Below, one piece after another: positions 1-4,130 of a stretch of 11,672 nt of DNA (position 1 is the first letter of the stretch; every line of letters starts with the position of its first letter). Made by a program: the position numbers and the translations under genes. The stretch is from positions 1 to 11,672 of the forward strand of contig CAYNQI010000030.1 in assembly GCA_964399335.1 (NCBI GenBank), read 5' to 3'. Origin of the DNA: an uncultured Thermoplasmata archaeon (GTDB taxonomy: Archaea; Thermoplasmatota; Thermoplasmata; Halarchaeoplasmatales; Halarchaeoplasmataceae). Below the pieces are notes generated by a model. That model did no database searches and was not told where the DNA came from. It saw only the letters and a program-made list of their open reading frames with translations.

Positions 1-4
1 GCTC

Positions 5-206
5 TTGACCTGTTTTACCAGCGAAGCAGGACTTGACTTTCGGGCAGGATATACCAGCCGTCAAGTACCATTTTACATACCTGTTTCAAGGTATTTAAAG
101 GTTGAAGGAGGGGGTAAGTGAAAGTGGAGATGTAGAAGGTGTGTTTTCACACATCACGACATTCATCCCTCTCCCTGAACGGAGAAGGGCTTCTGTCTAT
201 CTTCTT
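5..206 (-). mobile_element. Putative non-autonomous (MITE/PATE-like) IS200/IS605-family element inserted in lrgB
   Basis: Minus strand 192-162 reads AAGC-CCTTCTCC-GTTCAG-GGAGAGG-GATGAA. This is a subterminal hairpin with a bulged T, of the GAAGCCC..TTCAG..GGGATGAAT type I recognise as an IS200/IS605 left end. A TTAG tetranucleotide (210-207) lies 15 nt upstream of the AAGC guide, exactly where lrgB homology stops. The right end is placed tentatively at TCAA (8-5): removing 5-206 gives GCT CCT AAA AGC GTG ACG ACT CCG = APKSVTTP in the lrgB frame. The left end is better supported than the right end. Confidence 0.6.
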
Positions 207-523
207 CTAAAAGCGTGACGACTCCGATAGCCATAGGTGTAAGTGAACAGATAGGAGGGATACCTCCCCTTACTGCGATATTAGTGATAATCACCGGTAT
301 CCTGGGCAACTCTGTGGGAGTAAATCTTTTGAATCTGTTTGGTGTGAAAGACAAAGTCGCACGAGGATTAGCTATGGGAGTAACTTCCCACGGACTCGGT
401 ACTGCGAAGATAATCCAGGAAGATAAACTGAGTGGTGCCGTAAGTGGTTTAGGTATGGCTCTTAATGGAATATTTACTTCTTTCATATTGTATTATCTTA
501 TACGCTTGCTTATGTGGTTGTGA
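207..523 (+). pseudogene. lrgB: LrgB/CidB-family membrane protein, C-terminal half (gene interrupted at codon P of PKSVTTP)
   Basis: Translation KSVTTPIAIGVSEQIGGIPPLTAILVIITGILG...ARGLAMGVTSHGLGTAKI...GAVSGLGMALNGIFTS matches the LrgB C-terminal signature (KSVTTPIA; A.G.A.G..SH..GTA). Only about 105 codons are present, versus roughly 230 aa for a typical LrgB. There is an in-frame stop at 176-178 and no RBS before GTG 215. Confidence 0.8.
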
Positions 524-674
524 ACGATCGGTTTTAGAAATTGTGTGGAGGTTATATGCCTATGTTATGCAACTGACAGGCAAAGATTTAGCTTGTTAAA
601 TCTGCAAAGTACACACCATTTTACTCCTTTCGAGTAAGGCAAAAACCTATAATTTACATAAGTCGCACATAAAA

Positions 675-707
675 TTTATATATTAAATATAACAATTATA
701 GGGTGGT
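675..707 (+). promoter_or_regulatory. Archaeal promoter (TATA box TTTATATA 675-682) and RBS (GGGTGGT 701-707) of the toxin-antitoxin operon; palindrome TATATT-A-AATATA 679-691 is a possible operator
   Basis: The TATA box is preceded by an A-rich BRE-like stretch and lies about 30 nt before ATG 711. The operator role is inferred from typical type II TA autoregulation; AT-rich palindromes arise easily by chance. Confidence 0.5.
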
Positions 708-710
708 AAA

Positions 711-908
711 ATGGCAACAACGATCCAGGTAGATGTGAAAACAAGAGAGAAGCTAAAAAGATTTGGCCATAAAGGGGAGTCCTACGATGATATCATCGAA
801 CGATTGATGAATTATTGCGAAGAAATGAATATAGAAGAGTTGATCGAGGCAAGATGGGAAAGACTTCAAAAAGAAAAAAATGAATACATCCCTTTGGAAG
901 AGATTTAG
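711..908 (+). CDS. Antitoxin, RHH-like DNA-binding protein (archaeal TTIQV...E[ST]YDD[IV]I.RL type), 65 aa
   Basis: N-terminus MATTIQVDVKTREKLKRFGHKGESYDDIIERLM has the strand-helix-helix pattern of small archaeal antitoxins, and the C-terminus is acidic (EYIPLEEI). It has an RBS and sits directly upstream of a RelE-like gene. Confidence 0.8.
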   Translation: MATTIQVDVKTREKLKRFGHKGESYDDIIERLMNYCEEMNIEELIEARWERLQKEKNEYIPLEEI

Positions 909-1163
909 ATGGAAATCTTATTACATCCCCGTGTTCAAAAATATCTTAATGATAATGGGGAAAAAGAAAGACTCGTAAAGCATATTAGAAAATTAGCTAT
1001 CGATCCATATAATCCTAGGAGTGGAGTGGATATAAAAAAATTAAAAGGAAAACGTCATGACATGTATAGATTGAGAGTCGGGAATCATAGGTTCGAATAT
1101 TTTATAGACGAAGAAAAGATCTGGATTGATGATGCTTTTCACAGGGGAAGAGGATACAAATAA
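909..1163 (+). CDS. relE: RelE/ParE-superfamily toxin (putative mRNA interferase), 84 aa
   Basis: Contains IKKLKG...YRLRVGNHRFEY...I..AFHRG, the RelE-type motif set. Its size and position right after a small antitoxin gene fit. Confidence 0.85.
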   Translation: MEILLHPRVQKYLNDNGEKERLVKHIRKLAIDPYNPRSGVDIKKLKGKRHDMYRLRVGNHRFEYFIDEEKIWIDDAFHRGRGYK

Positions 1164-1192
1164 ATAGACTTACTCGAAAAGGCAAATGACGT

Positions 1193-1512
1193 TAAAAATG
1201 TACCATTTTGTAAACGGACTCATCAGAATCCGCAGTGATAACGAGGATCAAGATAAATAAATGAACGGAGTGAATTTATTAGTCGAAAAGCAGACGCTTT
1301 CTAACACCACGTTTAAAATCAGAGATTTCTAAACGGACTCATCAGAAGGTTGGCGCCTTCTAACTATCCGTCAATTATGAAAAAATAATGTGACGGACAC
1401 CGCAGAATGCTATCGCATTCTCCTTGTCCGTAAAAATGTACCATTTTGTAGACGAACTCATCAGAAGGTTGGCGCCTTCTAACTATCCGTCAATTATGAA
1501 CCGGAAAGTAGA
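1193..1512 (-). repeat. tRNA-linked tandem array of ~59-60-bp degenerate, hairpin-forming units (alternating A/B types, 119-bp super-period)
   Basis: Unit starts (+ strand) at 1211 TAAACGGACTCATCAGAA, 1271 (degenerate), 1330 TAAACGGACTCATCAGAA, 1390 GTGACGGACACCGCAGAA and 1449 TAGACGAACTCATCAGAA, then the tRNA end at 1509 TAGACGGAC. 1330-1381 vs 1449-1500 match 50/52; 1193-1228 vs 1431-1466 match 34/36 (offset 238 = 2x119). Confidence 0.9.
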
Positions 1513-1587
1513 CGGACGCGACGGGATTCGAACCCGTGCTGTCTGCCTTAGAAGGGCAGCGCCATGTCCAGGCTAGGCCACGCGCCC
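1513..1587 (-). tRNA. tRNA-Arg (anticodon UCU), intron-less, CCA not encoded
   Basis: Minus strand GGGCGCG-TG-GCCTAGCCTGGACATGGC-G-CTGCC-CT-TCT-AA-GGCAG-ACAGC-ACGGG-TTCGAAT-CCCGT-CGCGTCC-G forms a complete cloverleaf: acceptor GGGCGCG/CGCGTCC, anticodon stem CTGCC/GGCAG, T-loop TTCGAAT. Confidence 0.97.
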
Positions 1588-1652
1588 ATTGTTAAGAGTG
1601 TTTTTCCCTTACCGTACCTAAGCTGAAACTATTTTCAGATAAGTAATTTTTC

Positions 1653-4130
1653 CTACTCTTCCTCGGTATCCTCGACGATCTCTTTCTCCTCTTCCTCACC
1701 GATGACCTTAGTCATGGCGATCAGTTCGTCATCCTCTTTAACTCTCATAGTTTTCACACCCATGGTGTTCCTTCCCTGTATGCTGATATCATCCACAGCA
1801 GTTCTTATGATCATCCCGGTCCTACTCATCAGGAGGATCTCTTCGCCCTCTTCAACAACTCTAGCACATCTGACTTCGCCGGTCCGATCATTTGTCTTCA
1901 TGGTGATCACACCTTTAGCTCCTCGGTGTGTCTTCCTGTACTTTTCGACGGGACACCTCTTACCGTATCCGTTCTCAGTCAATGTCAACAGCATATCATC
2001 GTCATCAACAAGCGTCATACTGACAACTTCGTCCCCATCTCGGAGTTCTGCACCTTTGACACCCATTGTGTACCTTCCAGTAGCTCTTACCTCGCTTTCA
2101 TCGAAACGTACCGCTTGTCCGTGTTTGGTAGCCAGCATGATCTCTTTTTCACCGTTAGATAATTTAGTATCCACGAGTTCATCGTCTTCCATCAACCTGA
2201 TGGCCCATATCCCGGTAACCCTTGGATTACTGTAAGCCGCCAGGGACGTTTTCTTGATCTTACCTTTCTTAGTTGAGAACAACAAGTACTCGTCTTCTGG
2301 GAAATCACTGACGTGTAAAAGATCCTCGACTTTCTCGTCCCTTTCCAACCTTGGCAGCATGTTCACTATAGGTCTACCTTGGGTCCTACGACCCCCCTTC
2401 GGAACCTTATAGGCTTTCAACCAGTAAACCCTACCTTTATTGGTGAAGAACAATAAATAATCGTGGGAATCCACCACGAACATGTCAACAACATGATCTT
2501 CATCCTTGGTATCCATACCTATAAGTCCGACTCCGCCTCTACGCTGTTTACGGTAGGTATCTACAGGTAACCTTTTGATGTAACCACGTCGAGTCAAAGT
2601 GATCACTAATTTCTCTTTTGGAATAAGATCTTCAGTTTCGACCTGCACTGCATCTTTATCGATCTCAGTCCTTCTCTCGTCACCGTACTCCTCGGCAAGT
2701 TCATCCAACTCATCTTTGATGATATCCAAGATCTTCTGTTCATCACTCAATATACTCTTGTATTCCTTGATCTTCTCTTCGATCTCTTCGTACTCCGTCT
2801 GAAGTTTATCACGTTCCAAACCCGTCAATCTCCTCAACCTCATATCCAGGATGGCCTGGGCCTGTCTCTCACTCAACAGGAACTTAGAGACCAGTTTTCT
2901 TTTAGCTTCGGCTTGGTCCTCGGCTCCACGGATTATCTTTATGACTTCATCTAAGTTACTAAGAGCGGTCAACAAACCTTCCAAGATGTGAGCTCTCTCT
3001 TCTGCCTTATCTAGATCGTACTTCGTTCTACGTGTGACTACATCGATTCGATGATCGATATAATGCTGTATAGTCTCTTTTAAAGATAATATCTCAGGTT
3101 CGTCATCAACTAAAGCTAGATTGATGACCCCGAATGTAACCTCCATCTGAGTATGCTTGAACAATTTATTCAAAGCCACTTCTGGGAGGGTTCCTCTTTT
3201 AAGTTCTACAACAACTCTCACACCATCTCTATCTGATTCGTCCCTAAGATCGGAGACTTCATCCAAAGTTTCTCTTTTGACTAGATCAGCTATATTTTCA
3301 ACCAGAGTAGCTTTGTTGACCTGATACGGAATCTCATTGATTATGATACGACTCCTGTTCCCGCCCATATCTTCGATCCTAGCTTTAGCACGGACGGTTA
3401 TCTTACCCCTCCCGGTCTTGTAAGCTTGATAAACTCCTTCGTGACCGTAGATTATACCTCCGGTCGGGAAATCAGGACCAGGTAGTACATCCATAAGATC
3501 CACAACATCGGATCCAGGTTCATCTATCAACATCTTAGTTGCATCAACGAGTTCGTTCAGATTGTGCGGTGGTACGTTCGTGGACATCCCTACTGCGATC
3601 CCGCTTGAACCGTTCAACAACAGATTGGGTAACTTGGAAGGCAGTACAACCGGTTCCTCTAACGAACCGTCGTAATTGTCTCGAAACTCAACAGTTTCTT
3701 TACCGATATCCTCTAGCATCTCCTCTGCTATGGCTTCCATCCGAGCTTCCGTGTAACGCATAGCGGCTGGTTCATCACCATCTAGTGATCCAAAATTACC
3801 CTGCCCATCCACAAGTGGGTAGCGCAAAGAGAAATCCTGAGCCATCCGCACCAACGTGTCGTAAACGGCTTGGTCACCATGTGGATGGTACTTACCGAGC
3901 ACGTCACCGACTACACGGGCGGACTTCTTGTGAGATTTTTTAGAGGACAACCCTTCCTGGTGCATAGAATACAATATCCTTCTATGTACGGGTTTCAAAC
4001 CATCTCTAACGTCAGGAAGTGCCCTACCCACGATCACGCTCATCGCGTAATTTATGTAAGAATTCTTCATCTCCTCTTCGATATTTTTTTCGTAAACTTC
4101 ATCAGCGATACCGTTATCAACATCGACCAT
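1653..4130 (-). CDS. gyrA: DNA gyrase subunit A, 825 aa
   Basis: Motifs [25 protein letters not shown] and AAMRYTE (catalytic Tyr). The GyrA-box QRRGGVG precedes the beta-pinwheel C-terminal repeats, which distinguishes it from ParC. Acidic C-terminal tail. RBS GAGGT overlaps the gyrB stop. Confidence 0.98.

Follow-up and report, generated by a model that had tools for sequence, protein, structure and literature searches.

The repeat array described here lies on contig C30 (CAYNQI010000030.1; the 11,672 nucleotides analysed are hereafter called the window) of the 1.57-Mb, 80%-complete assembly of an uncultured archaeon (genome G000), whose relatives include Candidatus Saliniplasma and Natronoplasma, halophilic Thermoplasmata. 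On the minus strand between positions 1190 and 1512, just downstream of a tRNA-Arg(UCU) gene, the window carries a series of hairpin-forming repeats that represents, at this locus, a non-coding and apparently undescribed kind of tRNA-linked repeat specific to one family of archaea. The unit of about 59 bp is made up, in this order, of an inverted copy of a tRNA 3' end (D'), a 1-nt junction, a conserved 10-bp hairpin (H2, xAGAAnnn-GNNA-nnnUUCUx), a 2-nt junction, a direct repeat of the final 5-8 nt of the tRNA, discriminator base included (D), and an A/U-rich palindromic linker, often with a U-tract. The array is a chain of alternating hairpins, H2 inside each unit and H1 between one unit and the next. 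This anatomy and the link of the array to tRNA genes are very probably correct. No description of these repeats in Thermoplasmata turned up in literature searches, and an Rfam scan of window positions 1-2000, with E values up to 10, matched the tRNA alone and nothing in 1190-1512.

An alignment of 49 units (A1) served to build a covariance model (R1), and when the fetched loci were searched again with this model, 141 matches were obtained, of which 121 are distinct (A2). R1 matches were present in 38 of the 43 genomes of the family, which groups Thermoplasmata of salt lakes, and all ten genera were represented. In an even sample of the class, an R1 unit was detected in 16 of 17 genomes of the family and in none of the 133 genomes from 28 other families. 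The spacing of adjacent units has its mode at 59 bp, with 33 of 51 spacings between 57 and 60 bp. The genome of the window contains 11 units, each situated behind a tRNA or at a contig end.

The association with tRNA genes was assessed on the 61 distinct arrays of the fetched loci. ARAGORN placed a tRNA on the same strand within 700 nt upstream of 35 of them; one further host tRNA was resolved by Rfam, another is that of the window itself, and eight arrays follow an intron-containing tRNA-Arg(CCG) read by eye. When 13 arrays at contig or locus edges were left out, a co-oriented upstream tRNA was found for 45 of the 47 informative arrays, the two exceptions being weak matches on the opposite strand. 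The hosts are tRNA-Arg (UCU, CCU, UCG, CCG), tRNA-Ala (UGC, GGC, CGC) and tRNA-Val, the acceptor stems of which all start with GGGC; the tRNA-Ser calls made by ARAGORN correspond to intron-containing tRNA-Ala(GGC). In the window, the tRNA-Arg(UCU) gene that anchors the array (1513-1587, minus strand; Rfam RF00005, 60.9 bits, and ARAGORN) has the acceptor stem GGGCGCG/CGCGUCC with a G3·U70 pair, the discriminator G73 and no encoded CCA. The array begins 20 nt 3' of this gene on the same strand, its 3' arms (GAGUCCG, GUGUCCG, GAGUUCG) repeat the tRNA end CGCGUCC plus G73, and its 5' arms are complementary.

The D element follows the identity of the host, being GUCCG, GUCCA or GCCCA according to the tRNA. 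In the genome of the window, the arms are GGGUCCA behind tRNA-Ala (contigs C13 and C23) and GAGCCCA behind tRNA-Val (C10), and contig C18 starts with GCGAGUCCG. Over 23 tRNA genes of this genome, the last 8 nt of the tRNA recur downstream 14 times, compared with 1.3 expected from mismatched tRNA-flank pairs. In the A-type units of the window, the GAGUCCG arm corresponds to the end of tRNA-Arg(CCG) and not to that of tRNA-Arg(UCU), and this suggests an exchange between arrays. The tRNA-Arg(CCG) gene itself stands just after the gene of ribosomal protein S27ae in many genomes of the family (L074:1480-1700, minus strand; also L075, L081, L082, L086, L063, L056 and L064). It has intron-like inserts in the D and T loops, is missed by both ARAGORN and the Rfam tRNA model, and has a 3' end, CGAGUCCG, identical to the consensus 3' arm of the repeat units.

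Longer modules of 113-181 nt, ending in 14-19-nt copies of the tRNA 3' end, are found behind other tRNAs of the same genome (C39:760-1000, tRNA-His; C8, tRNA-Glu; C10, tRNA-Val; C42:7310-7616, tRNA-Ser). They look like copies of the segment from the T arm to the 3' end with hairpins in the T loop, and the tRNA-His module is present twice in tandem. On the other side of the tRNA, partial copies of the tRNA 5' part (GGGCGCGUGGCCU, UAGCCUGGACAUG) occur upstream of tRNA-Arg (L019:1270-1505, plus strand, in genome G001; also L017, L045 and L047), recurring about every 62 nt with hairpins of a different family (GGAAAAU...AUUUUCC) between them, in a mirror image of the 3'-side arrays.

Partial tRNA copies left by integrated elements are well known in archaea (PMC9897764); the 21-kb PYG1 island of Pyrococcus yayanosii, for example, is flanked by 44-bp repeats (PMC9897764). 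The arrays could be read as scars of viruses, plasmids or islands that inserted repeatedly into a tRNA 3' end by means of tyrosine integrases and duplicated the att core before decaying, so that tRNA-end copies would remain with remnants of the element arms between them. The direct copies of the tRNA 3' part located 3' of an intact tRNA, the longer modules of 113-121 nt with their 14-19-nt tRNA copies and the 5'-part copies upstream of tRNA-Arg in G001 are in agreement with this explanation. However, att repeats measure tens of bp and bracket kilobases of DNA and an integrase, whereas the copies described here are 5-8 nt long at a tight period of about 59 bp, which decay would not yield. Each direct copy has, moreover, an inverted partner beside it and a conserved hairpin, the pairing of H2 is kept through many sequence variants, and no integrase was found among the scanned reading frames of the window. 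No unit was found by an exact-pattern search of the 2.9 million viral contigs of IMG/VR, and a viral origin is not supported. The 3-4 nt spacer of H2 is also too short for the overlap region of a tyrosine recombinase. We consider the integration scars to be an improbable explanation.

That the units are maintained as paired structures is indicated by both folding and covariation. The minus strand of the 323-nt region folds at -96.5 kcal/mol, versus -72.5 kcal/mol for dinucleotide shuffles (z = -4.6), and no shuffle was as good. The plus strand likewise folds better than its shuffled controls (z = -3.9), because any palindromic DNA would fold well on both strands. Over the 121 distinct units of A2, 85.1% of the cells were paired against 73.3% in shuffles, and the covariation score was 0.393 against 0.199, a level reached by none of 500 shuffles; this score did not exceed 0.122 when the partners were slid by 1-3 columns. 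Changes on both sides were observed in 15 of the 18 pairs. An earlier note on this DNA, which had seen a conserved bulged hairpin in these repeats, suggested a covariance model built from homologous loci; alignment A2 shows strong covariation, and the shuffled controls fold less well than the native sequence.

The same data revise the shape of the structure. The pairing of each 3' arm was compared in two registers, by column pairs, over 51 distinct pairs of adjacent units. When the partner was the 5' arm of the unit that follows, 305 Watson-Crick, 43 G·U, 7 A·C and 46 other combinations were counted, versus 258, 48, 28 and 71, respectively, with the 5' arm of the same unit. The registers differ at the three positions after the discriminator, which are Watson-Crick in 47, 43 and 39 of 50 cases with the next unit and in 30, 34 and 25 of 51 cases within the unit. 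Since the pairing is better with the next unit, the conserved outer helix is H1, formed by D, the palindromic linker and the following D'. The H2 stem reaches 10 bp, because what was taken as an internal loop covaries (GUU/GAY, GCG/UGC, UGG/UCA, CAG/UUG), and only 1 and 2 bases are unpaired at its junctions. In the window the arms are similar enough for both registers: the bulged within-unit hairpin of the earlier note is possible there and is the minimum-energy fold, whereas the centroid structure contains H1 between units 2 and 3. Family-wide, this hairpin gives way to the pairing of the 3' arm with the next 5' arm.

The covariation also bears on the suggestion that the CUGAUGA and UAGA motifs form a kink-turn of the L7Ae type, or belong to C/D-box-like small RNAs. 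CUGAUGA is indeed present in the A-type units of the window, but the family-wide motif is GAYGR with C as the commonest base at Y, and types B and C have no GA. In A2, position pair 17-41 is A-U in 93 units and G-C in 17, and pair 14-43 is U-A in 80, G-C in 15, A-U in 6 and C-G in 4. The kink-turn is refuted because the positions supposed to form its sheared G·A pairs covary as Watson-Crick pairs, and no Rfam C/D-box family matched the array at E = 10; we regard this whole class of explanation as having almost no chance of being right. As a separate candidate, a C/D-box small RNA was rejected on the same absence of an Rfam match in the array and on the minority of units with UGAUGA (consensus UGACGA). 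A hammerhead ribozyme was likewise set aside: CUGAYGA does occur, but the next helix leads into AGUUAGAA and not into GAAA, and there was no Rfam hammerhead match.

The units of the window illustrate the alternation of the two hairpins, and the sequence statements of the earlier note for its four units proved correct on the minus strand. Reading away from the tRNA, the native 3' trailer (UCUACUUUCCGGUUCA..., 1493-1512), recognized by comparison with locus L019, has no U-tract, and its last bases (about 1493-1496) match the linker that precedes units 1 and 3. Unit 1, of type A (1450-1492; R1 score 45.9 bits, E = 3e-9), comprises D' GACGGAU, the junction A, H2 GUU-AGAAGG-CGCCAA-CCUUCU-GAU, the junction GA and D GUUCG, followed by UCU. 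Linker 1-2 (1434-1449) is a small palindrome, AAAAUG-GUA-CAUUUU, carrying the first U5 tract 3' of tRNA-Arg(UCU), and it forms one H1 hairpin with the D of unit 1 and the D' of unit 2. Unit 2, of type B (1391-1433; 49.6 bits), has D' ACGGAC, H2 AGAAUGC-GAUA-GCAUUCU with a GNNA loop, and D GUCCG; its arms ACGGACA/UGUCCGU give it the shape of the A units with another sequence. Over linker 2-3 (1374-1390; AUUAU-UUUUUC-AUAAU with a U6 tract), H1, as seen in the centroid structure, consists of 8 + 5 bp, GUCCGUCA/UGACGGAU plus the linker stem. Unit 3 (1331-1373; 50.6 bits) is an A-type near-copy of unit 1 as a direct repeat at 119-bp spacing, with D GUCCG; the arms of the two copies (GACGGAU/GUUCGUC in unit 1, GACGGAU/GUCCGUU in unit 3) differ by just two G-C/G·U swaps.

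Beyond unit 3 the array degenerates. Linker 3-4 (1315-1330) is the palindrome AAAUC-UCU-GAUUU, a linker type common to several genera. Unit 4 (1286-1314) has D' AAACGUGG and an H2, AGAAAGC-GUCU-GCUUUU, that is shortened in its 3' strand and keeps the GAAAGC-GUCU-GCUUUU stem described earlier; a similar truncation recurs in contigs C13 and C18 of the same genome and in locus L040. A non-coding terminal module (AAUAAAUUCACUCCGUUCAUUUAUUU...CUUGAUCCUCG..., 1231-1285) follows, copies of which cap the far end of the arrays at these three other loci, and related modules are present in L075, L086 and L050. A small open reading frame starting from an ATG at 1261 of the plus strand (MNGVNLL...) seemed conserved in C13 and C18, but was rejected since its third codon is a stop in L040. 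The last segment (1190-1230), recognized as a direct repeat, is a partial unit 5 with the 3' half of H2 and D (GAUUCUGAUGAGUCCG) and then a linker copy, AAAAUG-GUA-CAUUUUU. A palindrome containing the AAAUC-NNN-GAUUU core of the array linkers, CCUUCCUAAAUCUCUGAUUUAGGUGGG, also occurs away from arrays in this genome (C1:31292-31348, C12:28079-28135 and C25:14833-14889). The palindrome AAATCNNNGATTT, considered as a genome-wide operator, was found at 19 sites versus 4.5 expected, 5 of them in arrays, which is not informative.

For the origin and role of these structures, we tentatively propose, at a probability that stops somewhat short of even, that duplication and recombination of the DNA generate the arrays and that their hairpins are selected in a predicted tRNA-sense transcript as stop-and-cut signals resembling tRNA ends. 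The array would be built and reshuffled as DNA through tandem duplication and through recombination seeded on the short copies of tRNA ends, and selection on the tRNA-sense single strand, most likely a predicted RNA reading out of the tRNA gene, would keep the hairpins. In such an RNA, D and its partner arm would rebuild a helix like that of the acceptor stem, with a discriminator and then a U-tract, and would thus provide a stop-and-cut signal comparable to that at which a tRNA gene ends; the transcript would stop there and might be cleaved into small hairpin RNAs capped by GNNA.

The tRNA strand is favoured by several fixed features. Among the 121 units, the pair at the foot of H2 is U·G in 80, G·U in 17, A·C in 1 and Watson-Crick in 8; the arm pair copied from G3·U70 is a G·U in 62 units and never an A·C. 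The tetraloops are GNNA in 51 of 61 cases and UNNC in 1, mostly closed by C-G and free at the middle bases; the apical loops, described as variable in the earlier note, thus have fixed first and last bases. The tRNA-sense strand is more stable as RNA in all 32 of 32 arrays, by 14.9 kcal/mol on average, and its z is the more negative in 27 of 32 (-6.8 versus -5.1). After D, a run of T>=5 is present in 49 of 120 units, versus A>=5 in 18 of 120. The compensatory changes in the stems, the GNNA loops, the fixed wobble pairs and the energies favouring the tRNA polarity bear out the idea of selection on a hairpin in a single strand. The further claim that substitutions keep pairing only on the minus strand holds for the two fixed positions, the H2 foot and the arm pair, and fails for the other 16 pairs. 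Taken together, these data show that the pairing is selected and that the fixed features point to the tRNA strand, while the scattered mismatches look like neutral decay on both strands.

A number of observations weigh against the proposed reading and should be considered with it. The other 16 pairs are approximately symmetric, with 125 G·U versus 108 A·C, and in H2 hairpins collected by an orientation-free regular expression, the variable stem positions have 13 G·U versus 11 A·C, with no bias to either side. The apical pair of H2 favours the opposite strand, being C·A in 29 units versus G·U in 3; in the A-type units of the window, a minus-strand C·A corresponds to a plus-strand U·G at this pair. 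Composition accounts for about half of the difference in energy, because the sense strand is 56% G+T and shuffles average -29.0 versus -21.3 kcal/mol. An intermediate of single-stranded DNA would account for the same strand-specific features. Finally, the acceptor-like helix measures no more than 4 bp up to the junction and a T-loop is missing from H2, which makes recognition by enzymes of tRNA processing a guess. The resemblance to the acceptor end (GGGC...GUCC plus the discriminator, and G3·U70) could also mean that the GNNA-capped units are small genes or processing products that mimic it and act as decoys, sponges or regulators, which we regard as rather unlikely. The same low probability is given to RNase Z, the CCA-adding enzyme, alanyl-tRNA synthetase, tRNA-targeting toxins or viral integrases as the targets of such a mimic.

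The arrays change rapidly. Behind the same tRNA-Arg(UCU), the order and the kinds of modules differ among genomes G000, G001 and G003; module content thus varies between species of one genus, G001 being congeneric with G000. The native trailer, UCUACUUUCC(U/G)GUUCA, is located after the last module in G001 and after the tRNA in G000. Two-unit blocks have been duplicated, the copies lying 119 bp apart in the window and 117 bp apart in contig C23 of the same genome. The first 45 nt of this contig (C23:1-45) are those found 3' of tRNA-Ala on C13 (C13:24150-24195); they are followed by a five-unit array in C23 and by one truncated unit in C13, and the two contigs represent either a second tRNA-Ala locus or strain variation. 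Several contigs, C18 and C23 among them, have an array at one end, and the arrays are thus a probable cause of breaks in the assembly.

This mosaic of modules and its fast turnover, together with the strand-specific features and the compensatory changes in the stems, would also be expected of selfish miniature hairpin elements moved as single-stranded DNA, in the manner of repetitive extragenic palindromic sequences and bacterial interspersed mosaic elements (REP/BIME) or of the hairpin ends of IS200/IS605. H2 would then be the hairpin of the enzyme, D' at its foot would be the guide pairing with a target D, and each insertion would end in a new D, repeated insertion being the way in which arrays would grow. 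The layout of target, linker, guide, hairpin and cleavage site resembles what we take to be that of IS608 ends. The left and right IS200/IS605 ends, and those of the non-autonomous derivatives of these elements (palindrome-associated transposable elements, PATEs), presumably share with the units a sub-terminal hairpin with a foot guide complementary to the adjoining target or cleavage site, and strand-specific recognition as a single strand. The presence of GAGUCCG behind tRNA-Arg(UCU) suggests movement between tRNA loci, and the genome of the window possesses a Y1 transposase gene. The latter belongs to an IS200/IS605-type element (C101:1586-3300, locus L095), in which the Y1 transposase (135 aa) lies beside a 440-aa open reading frame that is probably TnpB by its size and position; the element is unrelated to the units.

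However, no more than 24 of the 43 genomes have the Y1 transposase family (PF01797). Among those without it are G007 (95% complete, 13 units) and G013 (94%, 6 units), which are rich in arrays and nearly complete, as well as G006 (86%, 10 units). No unit was found near any TnpA gene, including in searches with the filters off. In contrast to IS200/IS605 ends, the units stand in tandem and would have a tRNA end as target, and no matching transposase was found. REPs are dispersed over hundreds of intergenic sites; the units share with REP/BIME the short, imperfect, strand-specific palindromes, arrayed and non-coding, with pairing kept through variants, but they are not dispersed, being found only behind tRNAs, and flank no gene like RAYT (the REP-associated tyrosine transposase), the Y1 family being missing from many genomes with arrays. 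The tandem duplications of two units explain local growth without transposition. The selfish elements, including the roles given to H2 and D', are therefore an unlikely explanation, and the DNA-level building of the array with selection of the hairpins in a tRNA-sense transcript remains the one that we prefer.

A stack of terminators or insulators would be a simpler role for the array. On the minus strand, the gene order is gyrB, gyrA, tRNA-Arg(UCU) and then the repeat region, and on the other side an antitoxin and ParE/RelE pair (711-1163) is convergent to the array, with a partial LrgB gene beyond. The stack would stop gyrase-tRNA transcription and shield it from the convergent relE transcript. 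It is consistent with T>=4 after 78 of 120 units on the tRNA strand, with the 49 runs of T>=5 given above, and with the tRNA of the window, which has no U-tract of its own ahead of unit 1. Archaeal termination requires no more than a U-tract, and for this reason such a stack leaves H2, the GNNA loops and the tRNA-end copies unexplained. Most tRNAs of this genome end in a U-tract, yet some of them still precede modules ending in copies of the tRNA 3' end. Insulation from relE, which the earlier note had proposed, is contradicted by arrays behind tRNAs without a convergent gene: in G001, for instance, the same tRNA is followed by different modules, and the toxin cassette is absent. Conversely, ten copies of the relE cassette and one more distant relE homologue were examined in other genomes, and no unit or tRNA lies near them. 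A role as a pure terminator or insulator stack is, for us, of low probability.

The toxin cassette itself is a mobile unit. The array stops at the relE stop codon, and the homology of the relE cassette ends at 1156-1162. At least ten genomes of the family carry the segment 647-1163 of the plus strand, with an antitoxin (DUF7557) and ParE/RelE, at loci unrelated to one another, with 69-84% DNA identity over 647-1162. An 11-nt inverted repeat, TTTCGAGTAAG/CTTACTCGAAA (628-638 and 1169-1179), brackets the cassette in the window alone. The idea that the cassette is part of the array system was abandoned, the homology covering 647-1162 only, with no unit or tRNA at those loci.

The closest known system is that of the tRNA-linked repeats (TLRs) of E. 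coli, such as rtT of tyrT-tyrV and rrA/rrB/rrF (Egan and Landy 1978; Rudd 1999; summarised in PMC8144298). They comprise 22 units of about 150-178 bp at ten loci, one to five per locus, directly 3' of the gene and in the same orientation and operon, and each finishes with a stretch of 18-19 bp identical to the 3' end of the upstream gene, a tRNA or an rRNA (PMC8144298). They have no general function or agreed origin, and three are small RNAs produced by read-through and processing (PMC8144298). The archaeal units likewise lie directly 3' of the tRNA, are co-oriented with it and end in a copy of its end. They differ by their host, by their unit of about 59 bp and by the length of the copy, which is 5-8 nt (GUCCG, GUGUCCG, GAGUCCG) in the units and 14-19 nt in the longer modules, and they add an inverted tRNA-end copy and a conserved GNNA-capped hairpin. 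No match to the Rfam RtT family was found in 1190-1512 at E values up to 10. The attC sites of integrons are comparable as imperfect one-strand hairpins in arrays, and GUUAGAA resembles their GTTRRRY core. This candidate was nevertheless rejected: the RYYYAAC partner is lacking, the covariation of the arm extends to the following unit and not within the site, there are neither IntI nor gene cassettes, and the adjacent relE cassette is unrelated.

The family thus provides an archaeal counterpart to E. coli repeats known since 1978, with a clearer design, in which direct and inverted copies of the tRNA end are combined with a GNNA-capped hairpin. Arrays are present in nearly all the genomes of one family and yet differ between sister species. 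On the practical side, the arrays probably break assemblies, and the intron-rich tRNA genes adjacent to them escape the standard tools. This clear design, combined with the turnover, makes it possible to test how the ends of tRNA genes seed repeats and whether the products of the arrays are functional RNAs that mimic tRNA ends.

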